Source: an uncultured Acidobacteriota bacterium (GTDB lineage Bacteria > Acidobacteriota > Thermoanaerobaculia > Multivoradales > UBA5704). Taken from it: DNA of 64,000 nucleotides. Each line of letters begins with the position of its first letter. Positions within the stretch are counted from its first letter, which is position 1. The notes below the pieces were generated by a model, which was given only the letters and a program-made list of their open reading frames with translations, did not search any database and was not told where the DNA came from. The stretch lies in assembly GCA_963700145.1 (NCBI GenBank), contig OY969474.1:1632001-1696000 (forward strand), written 5' to 3'. The position numbers and the translations under genes were made by a program. Below, one piece after another: positions 6,711 to 38,414 of this stretch.

Positions 6711-7625
6711 TTAGCCCGGATCTGCGACAGGGCTCGCAGGCGGGTGCGCGGCACGCAGGGCGAGGGCCACGCCGGCGGCGACGAGGGCGACGCCGGCGAG
6801 CATGCGGGGGGTGATCGGCTCGTCGAGCGCCACGGCGCCGATGACGACCGCCAGGACCGGCGCCGTGTAGGCGACGAGCGCGACGTGCGTCGCCGGCAGG
6901 TGCTGGAGGAGCCAGAAGTAGAGGCTGAACGCCACCGCCGAACCGACCAGCGCCAGATAGAGGAGCGCGGCGACCGACGGCCCGTCGAAAGTGACCGGCC
7001 GCCCCCGCTCTACCGCCGCCGCCAGCGCCCCCATGATCCCCCCGGTCAACAGCATCGGCACCGCGGTCAGCGACAGCGGATGGATCCCCGCCCCCCACCG
7101 CTTGATCGCGATCTGCGCAATCGCCGACACCAGCGGCGCCAGCAGCAGCACGAACGCAGCGATCTCCGCCCGCCGCCCCCCGAGCGGCTCGAAGTCCCCC
7201 GAAAACAGCACCGCGATCCCCACGAACCCCACCGCCACCCCCACCAAGCGCGCCGGCGTCAACCGCTCCCCCGGCACCGCAAAATGCGCCATCACCGCCA
7301 CCAACAGCGGAAACACCGCGAACAACACCGCCGCCAACCCCGAAGGCACCCACTGCTCGGCCCAGTACACGATCCCGTACGACCCGCAGAACGTGCACAG
7401 CGCATTCACCACCCACAACCGCCGCTCCACCGCCGTCCGACCCAGCGGCGCCCGAACCCCCCAAACCACCAACAGCAGCGCAACCCCCGCAATCGCAAAC
7501 CGCAGCGCCACCCCAGTAAACGGCGGCACGCCGCCAAGCCCAACGCGGATCGCAGCCCAAGTGGTGCCCCAGATGAGCGTGAGGAGGCCGAGAACCAGAT
7601 ACGACACAAGTCGCGTAGGAGGCAT
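6711..7625 (-). CDS. EamA/DMT family transporter
   Basis: IWGTTW, 10 hydrophobic segments, YLALVGS, LDEPIT. Confidence 0.9.
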   Translation of the reverse strand: MPPTRLVSYLVLGLLTLIWGTTWAAIRVGLGGVPPFTGVALRFAIAGVALLLVVWGVRAPLGRTAVERRLWVVNALCTFCGSYGIVYWAEQWVPSGLAAVLFAVFPLLVAVMAHFAVPGERLTPARLVGVAVGFVGIAVLFSGDFEPLGGRRAEIAAFVLLLAPLVSAIAQIAIKRWGAGIHPLSLTAVPMLLTGGIMGALAAAVERGRPVTFDGPSVAALLYLALVGSAVAFSLYFWLLQHLPATHVALVAYTAPVLAVVIGAVALDEPITPRMLAGVALVAAGVALALRAAHPPASPVADPG

Positions 7626-7637
7626 CTTTCCCCCGCC

Positions 7638-7664
7638 CAGATCCTTCGCTTCGCTCAGGATGAC
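7638..7664 (-). repeat. Short REP-like palindrome GTCATCCTGAGCGAAGCGAAGGATCTG
   Basis: atcct-tcgcttcgctc-aggat hairpin; matches a dispersed intergenic repeat type I recognise (reads VILSEAKDL). Confidence 0.65.
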
Positions 7665-7698
7665 GGTCTTACGGTTGTACCGTTGACTCGCCAACGGA

Positions 7699-7863
7699 GG
7701 GTCGCGCCGGGCGCTCTCCCCCGGGGAGCTCTCCGCAAGCGCCGGCAACGCCCTTCTCAGTCCACCACCGACCCCGCGCGCAGCGGAGCGCAGGCGCGCG
7801 CCCACCCCGAGCATTCCACAAAGCGCGCGCCGGTCCCCCGGGGGAGAGCGCCCGGCGCGACCC
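7699..7863 (-). repeat. Structured dispersed element, copy A (165 bp)
   Basis: Perfect 28-bp inverted repeat (7699-7726/7836-7863) enclosing ACCGGCGCGCGC...GGCGCGCGCCTGCGCTCCGCTGCGCG...GGGCGTTGCCGGCGCTTGCGGAGAGCT on the minus strand. Confidence 0.85.
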
Positions 7864-7894
7864 GGGCTCCGCGCGCTCGCCCCTCTCCTACCGC

Positions 7895-9214
7895 CTATGG
7901 ATAGATCTTGTGCAACATGCGCGGGTAAGGGATGGTCTCGCGCAGGTGATGGAGCCCGCCCATCCATGCCACGAAGCGCTCCAACCCCATCCCGAACCCA
8001 CTATGCGGAAACGCCCCATACCGCCGCACATCCAGATACCACTGAAACGCCTCGATCGGCAGATTGTGCTGGCGAATGCGCGCCAGCAGCAACTCGTGCT
8101 CGTGGATCCTCTGACTCCCCCCGATGATCTCCCCGTACCCCTCCGGCGCCAGCATGTCCAACCCCAGCACCACCTTCGCGTCCTCCGGGTCCGGCTGCAT
8201 GTAAAACGCCTTGAACGCCGCCGGGAACCGCGTCACCATCACCGGCCGGTCGTACCGCGCCGCCACCGCCGTCTCCTCGTCGGCGCCGAAATCGTCCCCC
8301 CACTGAATCGGGTTCCCCTCCGCCTGGAGCTGCGCGACCGCCTCCGTGTACGTGATCCGCGGAAACGGCGGCGCCACCCGCTCGAGCGGCGCCGGGTCCC
8401 GCTCCAGGACCTTCAGGTCCTCGCGGCAGCGGTCCAGCACGCGCGCCACCAGCTCGCAGACGAACTCCTCCGCCAGCGCGCACAGCCCCTCGAACTCCAG
8501 GAACGCCACCTCCGGCTCCACCATCCAGAACTCCATGAGGTGGCGCCGGGTCTTGCTCTTCTCGGCGCGGAACGTGGGCCCGAAGCAGTACACCTTGCCG
8601 AGCGCCGCCGCCGCCGGCTCCAGGTAGAGCTGCCCGGACTGCGAGAGGTACGCCTTCTCGCCGAAGTAGTCGGTCTCGAAGAGCGTCGAGGTCCCCTCGC
8701 AGGCCGCCGGCGTCAGGATCGGCGAGTCGATCAGCGTGAAGTCGCGGGTATGGAAGAAGTCGCGGATCGCCTGCGACACCTCGCTCCGGAGCTTGAGCGC
8801 GGCGCGCTGGCGGCTGGAGCGCAGCCAGAGGTGGCGGTGCTCCATGAGGAACGCCACCCCGTGCTCCTTGGGGCTGATCGGGAACTCCTCGGTGAGCTGC
8901 TCGACACGGAAGTCGGTGAGCTGGATCTCCACCCCGCCCGGCGCCCGGCGGTCCTCCTTGACGCGCCCGGAGAGCGCGACGGTCGATTCCTGCGTCGCCC
9001 GCTCGACCTCCGCCCACGCCGCCTCCGGCAGGTCCGCCCGGCTCGCCACCGCCTGCACCACCGCCCCGCCCAGCCGTACCTGGAGAAAGGCGATCTTCCC
9101 CGACGAGCGCTTCCCGTCGATCCACCCCCGCAGCGCCACCTCCTGCCCGGCGTGGGCGGGCAGCTCGCGGAAGGAGGGGGACGGGAGCGGCGGGGCGGGC
9201 GTGGTCGTCGCCAT
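7895..9214 (-). CDS. asnS: Asparagine--tRNA ligase
   Basis: YLSQSGQLY, FGPTFRAEKSKTRRHLMEFWM, GEIIGGSQR, PHSGFGMGLER. Confidence 0.97.
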   Translation of the reverse strand: MATTTPAPPLPSPSFRELPAHAGQEVALRGWIDGKRSSGKIAFLQVRLGGAVVQAVASRADLPEAAWAEVERATQESTVALSGRVKEDRRAPGGVEIQLTDFRVEQLTEEFPISPKEHGVAFLMEHRHLWLRSSRQRAALKLRSEVSQAIRDFFHTRDFTLIDSPILTPAACEGTSTLFETDYFGEKAYLSQSGQLYLEPAAAALGKVYCFGPTFRAEKSKTRRHLMEFWMVEPEVAFLEFEGLCALAEEFVCELVARVLDRCREDLKVLERDPAPLERVAPPFPRITYTEAVAQLQAEGNPIQWGDDFGADEETAVAARYDRPVMVTRFPAAFKAFYMQPDPEDAKVVLGLDMLAPEGYGEIIGGSQRIHEHELLLARIRQHNLPIEAFQWYLDVRRYGAFPHSGFGMGLERFVAWMGGLHHLRETIPYPRMLHKIYP

Positions 9215-9959: not shown

Positions 9960-10634
9960 CTAGTCGCTCTGCAGCCGCCGCAGCGCGTCCGCCGCGGCCT
10001 GCTGCTGCGCCACTTTCTTGCTCGACCCCTCGCCGCGGCCGGCGCGCTCGCCGGCGACCCAGCACTCGACGGCGAAGCGCTTGTCGTGGTCGGGGCCGGA
10101 TTCGCCGACCAGGCGGTAGTCGGGGAGGTCCCAGCCGCGCGCCTGCGCCAGCTCCTGGAGGGCGGTCTTGGAATCCGAGTGGAGGACCTCGGCGTCGGCG
10201 GCGAGCGCGCGGTCGAGCATCGGGCGGACGGCGGCGCGGGCGGGGTCGAGGCCGCCGTCGAGGTAGATCGCGCCGAAGAGGGCCTCCAGCGAGTCGGCGA
10301 GCAGCGAGTCCTTGCCGCGCCCGCCGCCCCGCTCCTCCCCCACCCCGAGCTTCAGCTCGTCGCTCACCCCGAGCGTAGCGGCCCAGGCGGCGAGGACCGG
10401 CTCGCTGACCAGGTGGTTCAGCCGCTTCGTGAGGCCGCCCTCGCGCTCGTCGGGATAGCGCTCGAAGAGCAGCTCGGCCGTGACGAGCTTGAGGACCGCG
10501 TCCCCCAGGAACTCCATGCGCTCCCAGTGCTCTTCGCTCCCCTGCTCGCTGGCGAGCGAGCGGTGGGTCAGCGCCCGCTCCAGCAGCTCGCGGCGGCGGA
10601 AGCGGTAGCCGAGGCTCTCCTCAACGCCGGCCAA
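9960..10634 (-). CDS. rnc: Ribonuclease III
   Basis: ALTHRS, ERMEFLGDAVL, EALFGAIYLDGG, C-terminal dsRBD. Confidence 0.95.
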   Translation of the reverse strand: MAGVEESLGYRFRRRELLERALTHRSLASEQGSEEHWERMEFLGDAVLKLVTAELLFERYPDEREGGLTKRLNHLVSEPVLAAWAATLGVSDELKLGVGEERGGGRGKDSLLADSLEALFGAIYLDGGLDPARAAVRPMLDRALAADAEVLHSDSKTALQELAQARGWDLPDYRLVGESGPDHDKRFAVECWVAGERAGRGEGSSKKVAQQQAAADALRRLQSD

Positions 10635-12435
10635 AGCGCCTTTCGAGGTCGGCGTCGGTCATCTGCAGGACGACGGGACGGCCGTGCGGGCAGGCGTACG
10701 GCTGCTCGGCGGCGAAGAGCTCGGCGACGAGGGCCTCCATCTCGGCCGGGGCGAGGGGGTGGTGCATCTTGACCGCCGCCTTGCAGGCGAGGCTCGCGGC
10801 GAGGGTCTCGACGAGGCGCCGGCGCAGGGGCGCGGCGCCGCCGCCGCCGTTGTCGCCGGCGTGCTCGGCACCCTCGTCGGCAGCAAGGGTGCGGAGGAGC
10901 GCCTCCCCCTCCTCGGCCGAGAGCGGGGCCGGGACGGCGGTCAGGGCCAGCGTGTCGCCCGAGAGAACGGCGAGGCCGAAGCCGCACTCCTCCAGCTCGG
11001 GCGCCAGCTCCTGGAGCCGCAGCCGCTCGGCCGGTGCCAGCTCCAGGAGGGCCGGGTGCAGGAGCGCCTGGCTGGCGGGGGACTCGGCGGCGAGGGCGCG
11101 GCGGAGGCGCTCGTAGAGGATGCGCTCGTGGGCGACGTGCTGGTCGATCACGTAAAGGCCGTCGGGGCCTTCGAGGAGGATGAGCGTCCCCTTGTACTGG
11201 CCGAGGAGGCGGAACGGGCGCGGCTCGCCGCCGCGGCCGGAGAGCGGGACCATCGGGCGGTCGAGGGGTGCGTAGGCGGCGGCTGCGAGACGCTGCGGGC
11301 TGCCTTCGGCAAGATCGCCGGCGAGGCGCCGCTCCCACGCTTCCGCCGTCGAGTACGGCCGGTCGCCCAACCCGCGCCAGGCGGGCGGCATCGACGGCGC
11401 CTCCCCGTGCGGCGCGCGCAGCGGCGCCGGCTCCTCGCCGCGCGCCCGCGCCAGGGCGGCGCGCAGGGTGAAGTGCAGGCGGTCGAGGAGACGAGGATCG
11501 CGGAAGCGCACCTCCGCCTTCTGCGGATGGACGTTGACGTCCACCTCCTCGGGCGGCAGCTCGAGGAAGAGGAAGAGCGCCGGGAACTCGTCGCTCCGCC
11601 ACTCCTCGCGCACGGCGCGGTAGAAGGCGGCGAGGACGGCGCGGTCGCGCAGGAGGCGCCGGTTGACGAAGACGAAGGCGCGGCGGGCGCCGGCGGTCTC
11701 GGGGGTGCCGACGAGGCCGGAGATCGTCTCGTGGAGCGCGCCGGTGGCGGCGAGGGCCGGTGAAGGGATCTCGACCAGGCGGCGCGCGAAGTCGTCGCCG
11801 AAGAGGGCGGCGATGCGCGGGCGGGGGTCGGCGGCGGGCAGAGCGTCGAGGAGCTCGCGGCCGTCGTGCGCGAGGCGCAGGCGGACGTCCGGGCGCGCGA
11901 GGGCGTAGCCCTGGACGACTTCCAGGCAGCGGCGCAGCTCGGTCGCCGGGCTCTTGAGGAACTTGCGCCGCGCCGGCACGTTCCAGAAGAGGGATGCGAC
12001 TTCGATGCGGGTGCCGCGCGGCGCGGGCGCGGGCTCGGCGGCGAGGACGCGGCCGCCGTCGATGCGCACGCGCTGGCCGTCACCCGGTTGCTCGGCGGTG
12101 AGGAGCTCGACGCGCGCCACGGCGGCGATGGCGCAGAGGGCCTCGCCGCGGAAGCCGAGGGTGGCCACGCGCTCGAGGTCGGCGAAGCCGGCGATTTTGC
12201 TGGTGGCGTGGCGGTCGAAGGCTAAGAGGGCGTCGTCGCGGCCCATGCCGGTGCCGTCGTCGGCGACGGCGATGCGGCGGCGGCCGCCGGCTTCTAATTC
12301 GATTCGGATGTCGGTGGCGCCGGCGTCGAGGGCGTTTTCGACTAGCTCCTTGACGACCGAGGCCGGGCGCTCCACGACCTCGCCGGCGGCGATCTGGGCT
12401 GCCACTCGGTCGGGGAGGATGTGGATGCGGGGCAT
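10621..12435 (-). CDS. mutL: DNA mismatch repair endonuclease MutL
   Basis: QIAAGEVVERPASVVKELVENALDAGA, GFRGEAL, DQHVAHERILYE, CPHGRP. Confidence 0.97.
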   Translation of the reverse strand: MPRIHILPDRVAAQIAAGEVVERPASVVKELVENALDAGATDIRIELEAGGRRRIAVADDGTGMGRDDALLAFDRHATSKIAGFADLERVATLGFRGEALCAIAAVARVELLTAEQPGDGQRVRIDGGRVLAAEPAPAPRGTRIEVASLFWNVPARRKFLKSPATELRRCLEVVQGYALARPDVRLRLAHDGRELLDALPAADPRPRIAALFGDDFARRLVEIPSPALAATGALHETISGLVGTPETAGARRAFVFVNRRLLRDRAVLAAFYRAVREEWRSDEFPALFLFLELPPEEVDVNVHPQKAEVRFRDPRLLDRLHFTLRAALARARGEEPAPLRAPHGEAPSMPPAWRGLGDRPYSTAEAWERRLAGDLAEGSPQRLAAAAYAPLDRPMVPLSGRGGEPRPFRLLGQYKGTLILLEGPDGLYVIDQHVAHERILYERLRRALAAESPASQALLHPALLELAPAERLRLQELAPELEECGFGLAVLSGDTLALTAVPAPLSAEEGEALLRTLAADEGAEHAGDNGGGGAAPLRRRLVETLAASLACKAAVKMHHPLAPAEMEALVAELFAAEQPYACPHGRPVVLQMTDADLERRFGRR

Positions 12436-12484
12436 GTTTGGCGATCTTACGGTAGGCCCCGCTGGACAAGCGGCCCCCCCGCCC

Positions 12485-12650
12485 AGCCCGGCGGCGGGCG
12501 CTCCCCGGAGGAACCGGCGCGCGCTTTGAAGACTGCCGAGGGGGGGCGCGCGCCTGCGCTTCGCTTTGCGCCTGGATCGATAGGGGACTGCAGTGGGGGT
12601 TGCCAGGCGCTCGCTCAGAGCTTCCTCCGGGGAGCGCCCGCCGCCGGGCT
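12485..12650 (+). repeat. Structured dispersed element, copy B (166 bp)
   Basis: Perfect 29-bp inverted repeat (12485-12513/12622-12650) enclosing ACCGGCGCGCGC...GGCGCGCGCCTGCGCTTCGCT...GGGGTTGCCAGGCGCTCGCTCAGAGCT. Confidence 0.85.
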
Positions 12651-12665
12651 TCCCCCCTGGACGAA

Positions 12666-13495
12666 CTACAAAGGCAGCAATGTGTAGGGGGGCTCGTGGA
12701 GGGTTGGCCTGCGCCTCGCTACTAGGAGAGTGTTGCCCCAGGCTCGGCGCCATAGGGGGACGGCGCGGAGTGTGGCGCGCAGGAGGCGGCGCGGGCCGCG
12801 GGGGTCGGGGCGATGCGGGAGGGTGCGGTGGTCGAGGATCTCGAGGTTGGCGGCGCGGAGGAAGCGAGCGAGGAAAAAGGACTGGGCGACGTGGACGGCG
12901 TCGGCGTCGGGGACGTAGCCTTCGGTCAGGACGCGGGGGCTCTCGACGAGGTCGAAGCGGTGGCGGCCGTCTAGGAGGGAGCGGAGCTGGCGGCCTAGGC
13001 GGCGGGCTGCGACCTCCAGGCGGCGGCGCGGAGGAAGGCTGGGGGGCATCTCGTAGGGGAGGTCCCAGGCCGAGCCGACGAGGAGGAGCAAGCCCCCGGG
13101 CCGCAGGACGCGGGCCGCTTCGAGCAGCGTCCTCCCCGGGTCGTGGAAGTGCTCTAAGGCGTAGGTTGAGAGGACGGCGTCGAAGCTGGCGTCGCGGAAG
13201 GGGAGGCGCTCGCCGTCGCCGCGGACGCGCGCTCCGGGGCGCCCCCACTCCGCCGCCAGGGCGAGGCCGGCGGTCGCGACATCCGAGCCGACGTAGCGGG
13301 TGCCGGGGGGCAGCCAGAGGGCGTTCTCGCAGGAGCCGCAGCCGAGGTCGAGGACCCGCTGGCCGGGCTCGAGGAAGCCGAGGAGGAGGCGCCGCTCGGG
13401 GGAGGCCTCGGGGTTGGCGGCGGCGGCCTGCGCGTAGTAGTCGCGGGAGGAGTCCCAGAAGGCGGCGAGCCGCCGGCGCTTTTCCGGGTCCGGCT

Positions 13496-13499
<4 letters not shown>
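12666..13499 (-). CDS. Class I SAM-dependent methyltransferase
   Basis: VLDLGCGS, LPFRDASFDAV, RVLRPGG; TTG start overlaps the ppdK stop. Confidence 0.85.
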
Positions 13500-16252
<2,753 letters not shown>

Positions 16253-16293: not shown

Positions 16294-17187
16294 TCACGCC
16301 GGCGCCCGCTGCACGAGGAGGACGCTGCCCAGGATGAGGAGGCCACCGGCCACCACGACGGCGGTCACCGGCTCGCCGAGCAGCAGGACCGCGGCGGCGA
16401 AGGTGACGAAGGGCTCGAGGTAGAGGAAGGCGGCGACGCGCGAGACCTCCAGCCGTTCGAGGGCGCCGTACCAGAAGAGGTAGCCGAGCCCCGAGCAGCC
16501 GAGGCCGAGGAAGAGGACGGCGCCCCAGCCGGCGGGCGAGAGGCCGGGCAGCTCGCGCCAGCCGCGGGTGAAGAGGAAGAGCGGCGCGAGCATCAGCCAG
16601 CCCAGCGCCATCGCGCCGGCGGTGGCGCGGGTGGGGCCGAGGCGGCGCAGGGTGCGGTGGCCGAGGACCGAGTAGACGGCCCAGTTGACGGTGCTGAGGA
16701 GGATCAGGAGGTCGCCGCGGGTCGAAGGGAGGCGGAGGAGGTCGGCGCCGAGCGCGCCACGCGAGATGACGAGGAGGGCGCCGGCGAAGCCGCCGGCGAG
16801 GCCGGCGATCTTCCAGCCGCCCAGCCGCTCCTTGCCGAGGAGGACGGCGAGGAGCGCCGACCAGAGCGGGATCAAGCCGATCAGCCAGCCGGTCTGGACC
16901 GCCGTCGTCATGGTGAGCCCGACCGACTGGAGCAGCTGGTGGACGAAGATGCCGACGAAGCCCATGAGGAGCAGCGACGGCAGCGCGTCCCGCGGCGGCA
17001 GCGGCGAGACGCCGCGGGCGAGGAGAAGGACGAAGAGCAGCGCCGTGCCGAGCGCGAAGCGCATGAACACCAGCGTCACCGGCGACAGCTCCCGCAGCGC
17101 CGCCTTCGTCGCCACGAACGAAACCCCCCAGAGCACCACGGCGGCCAGCGCGAGGAGCCGGGGCCGACCCCCGGAGCCCTCGCTCAC
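16294..17187 (-). CDS. EamA/DMT family transporter
   Basis: LWGVSF, multiple TM segments, LYLEP..LLGEP. Confidence 0.9.
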   Translation of the reverse strand: MSEGSGGRPRLLALAAVVLWGVSFVATKAALRELSPVTLVFMRFALGTALLFVLLLARGVSPLPPRDALPSLLLMGFVGIFVHQLLQSVGLTMTTAVQTGWLIGLIPLWSALLAVLLGKERLGGWKIAGLAGGFAGALLVISRGALGADLLRLPSTRGDLLILLSTVNWAVYSVLGHRTLRRLGPTRATAGAMALGWLMLAPLFLFTRGWRELPGLSPAGWGAVLFLGLGCSGLGYLFWYGALERLEVSRVAAFLYLEPFVTFAAAVLLLGEPVTAVVVAGGLLILGSVLLVQRAPA

Positions 17188-36585: not shown

Positions 36586-36622
36586 CCCCTCTCCCATGTG
36601 GGAGAGGGGCCAGGGGTGAGGG
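36586..36622. repeat. REP-like hairpin CCCCTCTCCC-atgt-GGGAGAGGGG with GGGGTGAGGG tail
   Basis: 10-bp perfect stem; matches a common dispersed repeat shape (CCCTCACCCC..CCCTCTCCC..GGGAGAGGG). Confidence 0.7.
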
Positions 36623-36674
36623 AGATGGGATCAACGCAGGAAAGGTGGAAGCCTCTTGGATGCTCCCGTCAGGT

Positions 36675-37364
36675 TCAGCGGCCGCAGCCAACGAGAGGGT
36701 CCCTCTTAACCAGTCGATCCCAGGCCTCAAGGAGGCCCCGGGTCCGGGGGCAGCCCAGATCGCCGGCGGCCATCTCGGCGGCGAGGCGGCGGAGGTCGGC
36801 GGGGGTGTCCACGTCGGCGGCATGAGGCAGGAGCTCGACGGCGAGGCCGAGCTCGCGGCAGCGGTCGAGGGTGGCGGCGAGGACGCCGGCGGTGGACCAG
36901 GGGATCTCGCTGAAGAGGCGCGGGTCGAGGGCGGCGGCGCGCAGGGCGATGAGGTAGTAGCCGCCGTCTTCGGCGGGGCCGAGGACGACTTCGGCGCCGG
37001 CTTCTAGGCGCTCGAAGGCGCGGTGGACGAGGGGCAGGGGGAGGGTGGGGTGGTCGCTGCCGAGGGCGGCGACGAGGAGGGCCTCGCGGGCGGCGGCGGA
37101 GAGGGCGCGGTGGAGGCGGGCGCCTAGGTCATGGCCTTCCTGGCGGAGGCCGGGGACGGGGCCGGCGGGGAGGGGGTCACCGGGGTCGAGGTCCCAGGCT
37201 AGGCGGAGGTCGAAGTCGCCGGCGCTGAGGCGTTCCAGGAGATCGGCGAGGAAGGCGGCGTGGAGGTCGGCGGCTTCCTCGGGGCTAAGATCGCCGATTA
37301 GGCGGGTTTTGACTCGGCCGGGGCGGGCTGGCTTGGTGAAGAGAAGAAGGCGGCGGCCGGGCAC
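36675..37364 (-). CDS. DUF2064 / TIGR04282-family glycosyltransferase-like protein
   Basis: K.A.PGRVKTRL, QEG.DLG.R, GSDHP, LGPAEDGGYYL, DVDTPADL. Confidence 0.88.
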   Translation of the reverse strand: MPGRRLLLFTKPARPGRVKTRLIGDLSPEEAADLHAAFLADLLERLSAGDFDLRLAWDLDPGDPLPAGPVPGLRQEGHDLGARLHRALSAAAREALLVAALGSDHPTLPLPLVHRAFERLEAGAEVVLGPAEDGGYYLIALRAAALDPRLFSEIPWSTAGVLAATLDRCRELGLAVELLPHAADVDTPADLRRLAAEMAAGDLGCPRTRGLLEAWDRLVKRDPLVGCGR

Positions 37365-37393
37365 ACGCGGATTGTATATGGGGAGCCGTGGAG

Positions 37394-37556
37394 GGTCGGT
37401 TGGGGGCCTCCCGGCGGGAACCGGCGCGCGCAACAGATGACTGCCGGATCTGAGGCGCGCGCCTGCGCTTCGCTGCGCGCGGAATCGGGCGGTGGGCCGC
37501 AAAGGGTGTTGCCAGCGCTTGCTCAGAGCTTCCCGCCGGGAGGCCCCCAACCGACC
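37394..37556 (+). repeat. Structured dispersed element, copy C (163 bp)
   Basis: Perfect 27-bp inverted repeat (37394-37420/37530-37556) enclosing ACCGGCGCGCGC...GGCGCGCGCCTGCGCTTCGCTGCGCG...GGGTGTTGCCAGCGCTTGCTCAGAGCT. Confidence 0.85.
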
Positions 37557-37610
37557 GGGAGCGGCCGTGGCCGCCCTACCCAGAAAAAAGAAGCAAGAAA
37601 AGGATACGGA

Positions 37611-38414
37611 TTGCCCCTCCTGACTCTGCTCACCGACTTCGGGACGGCGGACTACTACGTCGCGGCGGTCAAGGGGGTGGTGCTGCGGCTGGCGCCGGGG
37701 ACGGTGATCGTGGATGTTGGGCACGAGGTGGCGCCTGGGGACGTGGAGGCGGGCGCTTTCCTCTGGTCGGCCGCCGTGCGTTGGTTTCCAGAGGGGACGG
37801 TGCACCTGGCGGTCGTGGATCCCGGCGTTGGGAGCGAACGGCGGATCCTGGCGGCGCGGGGGGAGCGGGGATTCCTGCTGGCCCCGGACAATGGGTTGCT
37901 CACGCCGTTTCTGGACGAGCCCGGGTTCGAGGTGCGGGTGGTGGAGCGGGAGGACCTGTTTCTTCACGGGCCCGGCACCACGTTCCATGGGAGGGACAGG
38001 TTCGCGCCGGTGGCGGCGTGGGTGCTGCGGGGGGAGGCTTTCGAGGCGCTGGGGCCGGTTGTGGGGGATGCGGTGCGGCTGCCGGGCGAGCGGCCGCGGC
38101 GGGAGGGGGGGCGGCTCACCGGACGGGTGATTCACGTCGATCGGTTCGGGAACCTGGTGACCGACATCCCTTCCGACTGGCTGCCGCCGGGGCCCTGCCG
38201 CGTCGCGGTCGGCGGCCACGCCACCGAGCGCCGCGCCACGCATTACGCGGAGGTCCCGGCCGGCGAGGCTGCCCTCCTTCCCGGGTCTCTCGGCACCCTG
38301 GAGCTGGCGGTCAACGGCGGGCGGCTGGCCGATCTCTGGCGGGTCGGGCGGGGCGCTGGGGTGACCATCGACTGCGGGGTTGGTACGGATCTTTCAGAGA
38401 TTTCGGGCGGCTAG
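37611..38414 (+). CDS. SAM hydroxide adenosyltransferase (DUF62; chlorinase/fluorinase family)
   Basis: TLLTDFG, VVDPGVGSER, APDNG, TFHGRD, DRFGN; TTG start. Confidence 0.92.
   Translation: MPLLTLLTDFGTADYYVAAVKGVVLRLAPGTVIVDVGHEVAPGDVEAGAFLWSAAVRWFPEGTVHLAVVDPGVGSERRILAARGERGFLLAPDNGLLTPFLDEPGFEVRVVEREDLFLHGPGTTFHGRDRFAPVAAWVLRGEAFEALGPVVGDAVRLPGERPRREGGRLTGRVIHVDRFGNLVTDIPSDWLPPGPCRVAVGGHATERRATHYAEVPAGEAALLPGSLGTLELAVNGGRLADLWRVGRGAGVTIDCGVGTDLSEISGG

Follow-up and report, generated by a model that had tools for sequence, protein, structure and literature searches.

Local mutation rates and spectra of bacteria are commonly explained by the direction of replication, transcription, the context of a few bases or diffusible mutators. 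A locus in the genome of a soil bacterium, an uncultured member of the Acidobacteriota (UBA5704), raises the question of whether a short DNA element can impose a substitution bias on the genes around it. The locus lies in a window of 64,000 nt, the whole stretch of DNA analysed (GCA_963700145.1, contig OY969474.1, positions 1,632,001–1,696,000, forward strand), where an element, copy A (7690–7875, plus strand), separates eamA (6711–7625) from asnS (7895–9214), both encoded on the minus strand. An earlier note on this DNA had described a depletion of C from the minus strand on both sides of copy A, and had proposed a cis element directing local strand-biased mutagenesis, possibly through repeated exposure of ssDNA or through error-prone repair starting at nicks. 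The proposal was followed up in the window's own genome (G000, 95.4% complete) and in the comparison genomes G001, G002, G003 and G004, among them G002, of the same genus as G000, and the sister genomes G003 and G004. Strand E denotes the reference strand of the element, which at copy A is the plus strand of the window.

The halo at copy A is readily reproduced. The hand counts on the plus strand in the earlier note proved exact, both near the element (C31:G12 at 7201–7260, C31:G10 at 7441–7500 and C29:G8 at 7981–8040) and at the controls in distal eamA (6781–6840, C19:G28) and a paralogous EamA gene (16741–16800, C20:G28). In 1-kb windows, 7001–8000 has the most negative GC skew of the 64 kb (−0.260) together with an AT skew of +0.347, and in 100-bp bins the GC skew near copy A falls to −0.54. 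The left halo (6980–7625, minus strand) covers the 5′ two-thirds of eamA, whose coding strand, opposite E, is depleted of C at synonymous sites; the right halo (7895–8540, minus strand) covers the 3′ third of asnS and is depleted on the same strand. The third-position statistic C3/(C3+G3) was computed in 60-codon windows on gene calls from a crude GC3-based caller (2918 ORFs, 68% of the genome). Against a genome mean of 0.566 (sd 0.106; 1 percentile 0.291, 0.1 percentile 0.144; 55,523 windows), it drops to 0.14–0.27 in eamA (7010–7490) and to 0.24–0.37 at the 3′ end of asnS (0.24–0.33 across 7996–8296), with T3 reaching 15 of 60 codons and A3 near zero. The span of 6980–8450 claimed earlier holds at its left edge (6950–7010), whereas the right edge lies slightly further out, at ~8540–8600. 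Both proteins are intact, as had been stated: the EamA domain (PF00892, E 2.2e-36) and the class-II aminoacyl-tRNA synthetase (tRNA-synt_2, E 1.3e-69) and anticodon OB domains are matched over their full length, and AsnS is 96.6% identical to its G004 orthologue and 78–83% identical to those of other genera.

Copy A is one of 40 copies in G000 of a structured element of ~170 nt, family 1, found by nhmmer and by a covariance model. The family is restricted to one genus and combines a closing stem, long and GC-rich, with a pair of conserved inner hairpins. In copy A, the arms of the closing stem (7699–7726 and 7836–7863, plus strand) are 28 nt each and 100% complementary, and the conserved core (7714–7838, plus strand) carries the motif GCCGGCAAC, which recurs as a core motif of the family alongside GCGAAGC, present in most copies. 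GCGAAGC is cited in PMC3874155 as an exceptionally stable DNA mini-hairpin (compare the review PMC13037366). Arm sequences vary from copy to copy while complementarity within each copy is retained. In the family-1 alignment, 32 of 47 predicted pairs show double-sided changes and only 0–2 one-sided (wobble) changes occur per pair, G-U and A-C mismatches being about equally rare, which points to a maintained DNA palindrome; such double-sided stem replacement would be the expected trace of hairpin-templated DNA synthesis. Fold z-scores of copy A are −7.8 and −5.4 with RNA and −7.8 and −6.6 with DNA parameters. With DNA energy parameters its two strands are predicted to fold almost equally well (−76.8 and −79.8 kcal/mol), which would count against fixing a blocking structure to one of them. 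A related family 2 (~183 nt, arms conserved between copies) has 20 copies in G000, some of them haloed. BLAST finds 30, 19, 22 and 4 family-1 copies in G004, G003, G001 and G002, respectively, and the covariance model 31, 19, 21 and 9. Where the relatives' loci were examined, 32 of the 40 G000 copies have an orthologous copy, and certain sites are occupied in a single genome only.

The element resembles MITEs and REP/REPIN sequences in being short, intergenic, palindromic, multi-copy, lineage-restricted and presence-polymorphic. Indeed, many dispersed copies that differ in presence among related genomes are a MITE trait. However, family-1 arms, unlike those of MITEs, differ between copies while remaining paired; no target-site duplications were identified, no terminal inverted repeats common to the family-1 copies were found, and no long element with family-2 ends occurred among the nhmmer matches as an autonomous partner. 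A REP/REPIN–RAYT system was rejected since G000 gives no match to the Y1 transposase (PF01797), a search that was positive in 6 of 14 control genomes. In a full-text literature search, no compositional halo was found reported for MITE, REP/REPIN or similar repeats. A REP-like short palindromic repeat (7638–7664, no strand assigned; 142 matches in the genome) adjoins copy A and had been named as a possible cause of the halo. It was rejected, having no halo of its own: at 95 sites more than 2.5 kb from an element the mean flank skew stays within ±0.06. The REP-like repeat is also found in other genera without the element. Rfam 15 gave no covariance-model match on the element; its sole match at E ≤ 1 was a sub-threshold snoRNA (16 bits, E 0.93) on the REP-like repeat.

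The earlier note had expected the skew to follow the orientation of the element and the distance from it, and across the 40 family-1 copies it follows both. Mean element-oriented GC skew is −0.23 at −300 and −0.27 at +300 and returns to ~0 beyond ±1300, both flanks being C-rich and G-poor on E to about ±800 bp. The skew is negative in 37 of 40 left and 35 of 40 right flanks, and both flanks lie below −0.1 in 28 of 40; 29 of 40 copies fall under the 1st percentile of 5000 random sites (Mann–Whitney p 2.5e-19). The two further family-1 copies in the window, both covariance-model matches on the minus strand, illustrate the dependence on orientation. The copy at 12485–12654 (1644485–1644654 in G000) sits in a halo at ~11600–13500 of opposite plus-strand sign to that of copy A (skew +0.152 and +0.190 in 11001–13000), and most of its element-oriented 100-bp bins are negative (−0.02 to −0.38). 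The copy at 37392–37562 (1669392–1669562 in G000) has a halo at ~36600–38150 (plus-strand skew +0.253 in 37001–38000), with element-oriented flank skews of −0.24 and −0.34. Seen from the other side, a family-1 copy is present within 1 kb of 27 of the 50 skew islands in the genome (|skew| > 0.25 over 600 bp), and four others hold family 2, including the two largest left after family 1.

Within the halos the bias belongs to the DNA strand and not to the gene. Flanking gene pieces coded on E have a C3/(C3+G3) of 0.72 (n=29) vs 0.36 for those on the other strand (n=32), and where a copy lies between oppositely oriented genes one DNA-strand bias extends over both sides while the codon shift is opposite on each. 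The codons GGG, GTT, TTT and GCG, named earlier, were confirmed in those halo genes that have the depleted strand as their coding strand; there all eight four-fold families move to G, the share of NNY codons ending in T is 2–5 fold higher, and the TTR share of leucine codons goes from 0.05 to 0.17. Over all halos, the eight four-fold families shift alike without influence of the 5′ neighbour, and two-fold NNY and NNR codons shift 2–5 fold. Codon positions 1 and 2 are also shifted, as is amino-acid composition: genes on one strand gain Gly, Val and Glu and lose Pro, Ser and Thr, with the opposite trend in genes on the other strand. In these respects the halo behaves like mutation pressure. Its strength correlates with the predicted fold stability of the complement strand in family 1 (rho 0.39, p 0.013) and family 2 (rho 0.53, p 0.017), and with perfect-arm length in family 1 (rho −0.36, p 0.022). 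Five family-1 copies (815942, 1050748, 2720729, 4693466 and 4081310) have little or no halo, three of them with good stems. About 14 of the 20 family-2 copies have no clear halo either, and intermediate ones are skewed on the right flank only. As 17 of 20 G004 family-2 copies are orthologous in G000, those copies are older than the G000–G004 split. These haloless copies count against the cis-mutator reading.

Orthologues that lack the element also lack the bias, at eamA–asnS and in the right flanks at three further loci. Five element-free eamA orthologues from other genera have values of 0.4–0.65 in the same columns, and eight asnS orthologues from other genera have a C3/(C3+G3) of 0.41–0.75 in columns 261–440. 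At the three further loci (11, 11 and 6 loci from other genera compared), right-flank skew is −0.30 to −0.44 in G000 vs −0.10 to +0.18 elsewhere; G002 has neither element nor halo at two of the three. The same halos recur in G004, G003 and G001, a skew of −0.15 or lower being present in both flanks of 21 of 30 G004 copies and in one flank or both of 7 of 9 G003 copies; since most of these G004 and G003 copies are orthologous to G000 copies, replication in the sister genomes is not independent. G002 retains the orthologous eamA–asnS copy with a weak halo (−0.09 and −0.08). Further, two halos occur without an element: at ~3086815 in G000, where G004 carries a copy, and at the G002 orthologue of locus 3642677, where the flanks are 13 bp apart and the arms are gone. 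Like the weak halo in G002, these two sites count against the cis-mutator reading. We read them as fossil halos left after loss of the element, although insertion into pre-existing halos would give an equal picture.

The C>T and C>G direction postulated earlier is borne out on the complement of E when changes are polarised by element-free outgroups. Of 65 codons with C3 in the outgroups, the asnS halo now has C29 G22 T13 A1; the 50 such codons in the eamA halo have become C14 G26 T10. Codons with G3 are kept as G in 38 of 39 cases in asnS, and a second count gives 38 of 42. Deamination of C (C>T) alone was rejected as the source since the observed G:C ratio is unreachable without far too much T, and an extra direct C>G bias of ~3–4.4x is therefore needed. 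Thin polarised spectra on E (five loci, all sites) give G>A 0.044 vs 0.018, C>A 0.020 vs 0.0036 and G>C 0.033 vs 0.025, and spectra from four-fold sites only, with just 68, 47 and 98 changes, show no rise on the right. As for rate, the expected increase is seen on the left and fails on the right: compared with distant DNA, G000 and G004 have diverged 1.63x as much at four-fold sites in the left halo (CI 1.23–2.09) and 0.69x as much in the right halo (CI 0.52–0.89). A pure rate-increase model predicts 0.174 on the left, where 0.181 is observed, and 0.166 on the right, where the observed 0.077 is under half of that. The slow right halo is more in keeping with a fixation bias or a reduced local rate. 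Positions 1+2 track the four-fold sites, both rising on the left and roughly both falling on the right. In distant DNA, per-locus divergence ranges from 0.03 to 0.19.

Collectively, we consider it somewhat more likely than not that mutation or repair synthesis in the vicinity of the element is made strand-asymmetric by the element itself, the molecular steps being our own proposal. The cis link suggested by the earlier note came through both of its refuting conditions, on orientation and on orthologues, and the direction of change given there is right as well; a higher rate is seen on the left side only. E gains C and A and loses G, and its complement hence loses C and gains G and T. The element would fold on unwinding, or extrude as a cruciform, and would repeatedly interrupt one strand, through a nick or through a polymerase that stalls and leaves a gap. 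Removal and resynthesis of one strand (in the simplest case E) would follow over several hundred nucleotides on both sides with the complement as exposed template; damage to this template and low-fidelity gap filling may fix strand-specific changes, so that the complement undergoes net C>G and C>T change. In the long run, codon usage would be overridden and the amino-acid composition of neighbouring genes moved, while purifying selection would preserve intact proteins.

Parts of this scheme have precedents, although no prior bacterial report of such a strand-biased halo was found in the full-text literature search. In yeast, polymerase stalling at hairpins leads to GC>CG transversions (PMC3874155), error-prone tracts extend up to 1 kb from a bypassed lesion (PMC4380420), and this collateral mutagenesis is described as involving Pol zeta and Rev1 (PMC4380420, PMC3874155). 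As described there, the yeast process is similar to the halo in its trigger (a structure or block on one strand), its reach of several hundred bases to ~1 kb, its strand specificity and its GC>CG changes. However, the yeast tracts are presented as single laboratory events, downstream of the block only and dependent on Pol zeta/Rev1, while the halo is an evolutionary footprint on both sides of a heritable element in a bacterium. The features of stalling and gap synthesis seen at the element are its fold, the tract length, the strand specificity and a strength that tracks stability, with a raised rate on the left only. To our knowledge, bacteria have neither Pol zeta nor Rev1; G000 has two Y-family polymerase genes. 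A second parallel is animal mtDNA, where strand-asymmetric gradients around the stem-loop light-strand origin are attributed to time spent single-stranded. There too a hairpin sets the exposed strand and the exposed strand loses C. However, that gradient is genome-wide, tied to replication and made mostly of transitions, whereas the ~40 halos are local, roughly symmetric over 1.6 kb, independent of replication direction and strong in C>G.

Targeted hypermutation systems likewise combine a cis signal, a window of hundreds of bases and a preferred strand, whether in DGRs, in AID, which targets immunoglobulin switch and variable regions, or in EvolvR, an engineered nickase–polymerase tool. The halo differs in showing no sign that the diversity is used. 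DGRs change adenines and have a template repeat and an adjacent reverse transcriptase; DGR- or retron-linked mutagenesis was rejected here: it is C that changes, to G and to T on one strand, and the flanks consist of unique host genes with no template repeat. G000 has three reverse transcriptases, a retron type XI RT-protease (0.47 Mb), a UG22 (1.96 Mb) and a Drt4/6 type (4.15 Mb), which are defence types and lie elsewhere in the genome. As a tentative and more specific possibility, the element may be a loading or recognition site for an oriented machine that strips and resynthesises one strand over about ±0.8 kb. One candidate is a nickase with strand specificity, acting together with a helicase and an exonuclease; another is a sliding clamp steering MutL-type incision to one strand. 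The activity would depend on a trans factor that varies among the species of the genus, and would be strong in the lineage of G000, G003 and G004 and weak in G002.

Several other explanations need to be weighed. The element may require C/A-rich, G-poor flanks on its own strand, for instance as unstructured ssDNA or RNA that would be unable to pair with the hairpin or as a C-rich Rho loading zone, with synonymous sites slowly selected to that end. This is favoured by the reduced divergence of the right halo, whose composition and low flux are matched better by a shift in fixation bias (S ~1.5) than by a rate increase, and by the nearly frozen G3 codons; further, compensatory change keeps the closing stem paired, so that the structure itself is maintained. 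However, many copies of family 2 have persisted haloless, as have some of family 1 despite good stems, and thus the element does not need its halo. Shifts at codon positions 1 and 2 and in the amino acids of essential genes would be costly for a weak trait spread over ~1500 sites, and the movement of positions 1+2 with four-fold sites is rate scaling rather than a synonymous-only constraint. With halos also surviving at two sites that lost or lack the element, we regard selection as unlikely. A recombination hot spot with strand-specific biased gene conversion, skewing composition and homogenising lineages, is also quite unlikely, as is the route it could take, in which a gap or nick would load RecA on one strand and the heteroduplex would be repaired with a base and strand bias. 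Conversion would be strand-specific and independent of replication direction; the lower G000–G004 divergence on one side, at four-fold and 1+2 positions, speaks for it, and the wide per-locus divergence of distant DNA suggests that recombination is common. However, the left side diverges faster, and we know of no bacterial conversion bias that separates G from C by strand.

Cause and effect could also be reversed, with skew islands arising first and the element inserting in an orientation set by the skew. The two haloed sites without an element fit this order, as do the 19 of 50 islands that hold neither family. Those 19 islands are, however, small (1–6 windows), the largest being a purine-rich low-complexity run, whereas halos have the element at their centre and fade away to either side. 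Family-2 copies are present in unskewed DNA, the right-only skew of intermediate copies looks like a growing halo, other genera have no island at four loci, and the origin of the islands would be left unexplained; we consider this order highly improbable. Scarcely credible, finally, are the ordinary causes, although each of them can give a local compositional oddity in some genomes. The opposite codon shift on opposite strands (0.72 vs 0.36) excludes both codon adaptation and transcription-associated asymmetry. Replication-associated skew was rejected because halo size is equal whether E is leading or lagging (p 0.86 and 0.21 for two assumed origins, one at dnaA, 3.47 Mb, the other where gene-strand bias switches, 2.75 Mb), and G000 has almost no replichore skew. 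Horizontally acquired DNA is rejected as the flanks hold syntenic host genes whose orthologues are found throughout the family, and an assembly artefact because G004, G003 and G001, which carry the same halos, were separately assembled. None of these causes fits the halo.

A small heritable DNA element thus appears to set a strand-specific substitution regime over ~1.6 kb, strong enough to recode synonymous sites and, in essential genes such as asnS, to alter amino-acid composition. Even as a product of selection or biased conversion, the halo would represent a long-range constraint of a new kind at a repeat element. If its cause is mutational, the element would offer a natural in vivo system, with ~60 replicates per genome, in which to follow the redirection of repair or gap filling by DNA structures, and it may be a starting point for targeted-mutagenesis tools. 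It would also be a new source of rate heterogeneity that misleads analyses of codon usage, dN/dS, horizontal transfer and phylogeny. Should an oriented machine be at work, a bacterium would possess in this element a natural local mutator, inherited and targeted in cis, comparable to somatic hypermutation or to engineered nickase–polymerase tools.

The genome under study (G000) consists of a single contig of 5.46 Mb with 71.5% G+C; those of its relatives that have names belong to the Acidobacteriota, class Thermoanaerobaculia, and are known from metagenome-assembled genomes. Among sequencing runs, sampled words of the genome turned up solely in contigs from soil and other metagenomes, which contained at most 0.36 of them; no RNA run and no reads of the organism itself were listed. 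Copy A of a structured repeat of ~170 nt (family 1) lies at window 7690-7875, between two Pfam-confirmed genes on the minus strand, eamA (6711-7625) and asnS (7895-9214). An earlier note had reported strand-specific depletion of C around this copy, and its five hand counts on the plus strand were all exact on recount. The 1-kb bin at 7001-8000 has a GC skew of -0.260 and an AT skew of +0.347. Genes were called with our own GC3-based caller (2918 ORFs covering 68% of the genome), and the share of C at third positions, C3/(C3+G3), has a genome-wide mean of 0.566 (sd 0.106, n=55,523 windows of 60 codons). It drops to 0.14-0.27 at window 7010-7490 and to 0.24-0.33 at 7996-8296, in both stretches with raised T3 and A3 close to zero, and is normal again near 6950 and near 8600. 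The 5' part of asnS, far from the element, contains a second, smaller patch of low C3 (9016-9136, 0.25-0.39), which is common to the sister genome G004, weaker in G002 of the same genus and faint in one other genus (locus L010).

The same pattern recurs across the genome. Iterated nhmmer searches recovered 40 full copies of family 1, and a covariance model recovered the same 40. When flanks are oriented by the element's reference strand (E, the window plus strand at copy A), mean GC skew is -0.23 at -300, -0.27 at +300 and ~0 past ±1300, with negative values on the left of 37/40 copies and on the right of 35/40; the proposal that the depletion is tied to the element in orientation and distance is thus borne out. 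Set against 5000 random sites, 29 of the 40 copies fall under the 1st percentile. Within the window, each of the three large excursions in skew coincides with one of its three copies, and the signs of the excursions match the orientations of the copies. Genome-wide, 50 islands have |skew|>0.25, and for 27 of them a family-1 copy is found no more than 1 kb away. The halo is a compositional feature in cis to the element, locked to its orientation and limited in distance. Two local arrangements are worth recording. At G000:C1 4081070-4081431, two family-1 copies lie 120 bp apart in opposite orientations, one with a truncated right arm, and between and around the pair their skews partly offset each other. 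At G000:C1 2348000-2348400, outside any called gene and unrelated to either element family, one strand of a 400-bp stretch consists almost wholly of purines (GC skew up to +0.75, AT skew +1.0).

The halo follows the strand of the element, independently of gene orientation. C3/(C3+G3) is 0.72 in flanking genes encoded on E (29 pieces) and 0.36 in those on the other strand (32 pieces), and at copies between oppositely oriented genes the codon shift is opposite on the two sides. The shift is the same in all eight four-fold codon families. Genes encoded on the complement, and these alone, have a 2-5 fold higher share of T in NNY codons; the A share of NNR codons is ~2-5 fold higher solely in genes encoded on E, and leucine TTR codons in halo genes go from 0.05 to 0.17. 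The same direction of change is seen at codon positions 1 and 2 and in amino-acid composition. Halo size is the same with E leading or lagging under two assumed origin positions, one taken from dnaA and one from gene-strand bias, and on these origins the halo is independent of replication direction. The cumulative GC skew of G000 shows no visible origin or terminus; it climbs monotonically and tracks gene-strand bias only, with almost no skew at the scale of replichores, and dnaA lies at 3.47 Mb, away from the contig start. The REP-like repeat at window 7638-7664, which the earlier note had suggested as another possible cause, is excluded because 95 of its sites far from any element show no skew. 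This short palindromic repeat has 141 other matches in G000 and also occurs in other genera that lack the elements. It is frequently found at a distance of 0-40 nt on the left side of elements of both families and precedes 17/20 copies of family 2; it could serve as a left-end module or a preferred target.

In other genera eamA and asnS are also adjacent, separated by tens of bases that contain no element, and the orthologues there have normal third-position usage where G000 is skewed, as the earlier note's proposal anticipated. Third bases were polarised by outgroup majority and the G000 outcome was read per codon. In the halo part of asnS, 65 codons with outgroup C3 now read C29 G22 T13 A1, and 38 of 39 with outgroup G3 are still G; in the halo part of eamA, 50 outgroup-C3 codons now read C14 G26 T10. 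The control parts gave C52 G13 for asnS (65 codons) and C14 G4 T1 for eamA (19 codons). At three further loci, right flanks have skews of -0.10 to +0.18 in other genera (11, 11 and 6 loci) versus -0.30 to -0.44 in G000; for the left flanks, no alignable orthologue was found in the loci from other genera. At two of these three loci, G002 has neither the element nor the halo. The halo is absent from element-free orthologues, and the changes behind it run from C to G and from C to T on E's complement. In the sister genomes, both flanks are at or below -0.15 in 21/30 copies of G004 and at least one flank is in 7/9 copies of G003, most of these copies being orthologues of G000 copies.

Several results complicate this picture. 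A full halo without a detectable element is present at G000:C1 ~3086815 (3086770-3086860), where G004 has a copy, and the G002 orthologue of the copy at 3642677 is a clean empty site with a halo (locus L179, ~2381-2395; -0.32 and -0.21). We read both as fossil halos that persisted after loss of the element. G002 retains the eamA-asnS copy with a weak halo. Little or no halo surrounds five of the family-1 copies and most of those in family 2, and no sequence feature consistently set the halo-less family-1 copies apart among those compared.

The arms of copy A (7699-7726 and 7836-7863) are 28 nt each and perfectly complementary, and they close a predicted three-way fold that has two inner hairpins. 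The core is conserved across copies; the arm sequence varies between copies, with complementarity kept within each. Among 37 sequences from three genomes, 32/47 predicted pairs show double-sided changes and one-sided wobble changes are almost absent, and we therefore take the arms to be maintained as a DNA palindrome rather than as a typical RNA helix. Using DNA energy parameters, copy A is predicted to be almost as stable on one strand as on the other. Computed with RNA energy parameters, predicted fold stability is correlated with the strength of the halo, as is arm length in family 1. The covariance model matched 5/61 genomes of the taxonomic family, all of one genus, and found family 1 in none of the others among these 61; an Rfam search with the element returned no matching family. 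Across 151 genomes of the class, a strict two-motif pattern scored at chance level outside G000, with 0-2 matches per genome as in the reversed control. It recovers just 6 of ~60 copies in G000 itself and is a poor guide to related families elsewhere. No Y1/RAYT transposase was found in G000. Its three reverse transcriptases are of defence types and all lie away from the element: a retron type XI RT-protease (G000:C1 474231-475889), UG22 (1963558-1965183) and a Drt4/Drt6-like enzyme (4151557-4153128). No result ties these enzymes, MutL, the Y-family polymerases or dnaA, all located in G000, to the element. The only MutL_C match of the genome lies at window 10753-11205, in a minus-strand gene at ~10620-12480, and the 5' part of this mutL falls within a halo because an element copy (12485-12654) sits just upstream.

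A second family of ~183 nt has 20 copies in G000, outside the window (for example G000:C1 5152145-5152327 and 4624768-4624949), and two of its core motifs recur in family 1, with order and orientation preserved. The two largest skew islands without family 1 are centred on family-2 copies, with the same halo sign; one or other family is present in 31 of the 50 islands, the other 19 being small. Four to six of the 20 copies have halos, again of the family-1 sign, and the rest have none; in intermediate copies the halo is confined to the right flank. The greatest divergence and the highest predicted fold stability are both found in the copies with halos. As 17/20 family-2 copies of G004 are orthologous to copies in G000, these are older than the split of the two genomes, and a scheme in which young copies lack a halo and old ones have it is too simple. 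Family-2 score correlates with halo in G000 (rho 0.63, p 0.003), and in G004 the correlation is not significant (rho 0.18).

Which substitutions produce the halo was addressed with a rate model built on the fluxes of distant DNA. An increase of C>T alone on the complement matches the observed G:C ratio solely at the price of a large excess of T, and such a model was rejected. Instead, the fitted model raises C>G ~3.1-4.4 fold and C>T ~2.2-4.5 fold on this strand, and polarised counts on E at five loci show G>A, C>A and G>C all raised. Polarising the spectrum by side at four-fold sites only was underpowered. Between G000 and G004, four-fold sites diverge by 0.110 in distant DNA; the corresponding values are 0.181 for the left halo and 0.077 for the right, and bootstrapping over loci gives ratios to distant DNA of 1.63 (1.23-2.09) and 0.69 (0.52-0.89), respectively. 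Left exceeds right in 10/13 loci (sign test p 0.09), and divergence at positions 1+2 scales as at four-fold sites on both sides. The model predicts the left halo well (0.174 versus 0.181 observed) but over-predicts the right (0.166 versus 0.077).

The halo may also reflect selection acting on the flanks, conversion with a strand bias or the insertion of elements into islands that were already there. We rank a mutational process directed in cis by the element, as the earlier note had proposed, above all three. By way of background, MutS misses C·C mismatches, the orientation of the clamp can steer incision by MutL, and in mitochondria the light-strand origin determines which strand becomes exposed. 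In the cis-mutational reading, the element would fold and repeatedly trigger resynthesis of one strand over several hundred bases; damage to the exposed template and low-fidelity filling would then leave strand-specific changes to be fixed. The nearest laboratory precedents for such a mechanism come from yeast, where GC>CG transversions arise at hairpin stall sites (PMC3874155) and error-prone tracts extend as far as 1 kb from a lesion that has been bypassed (PMC4380420). Because full-text searches of the literature turned up no description of a halo, compositional or mutational, around any repeat element of bacteria, we rate the phenomenon as new in kind, and the mechanism as one that we infer.
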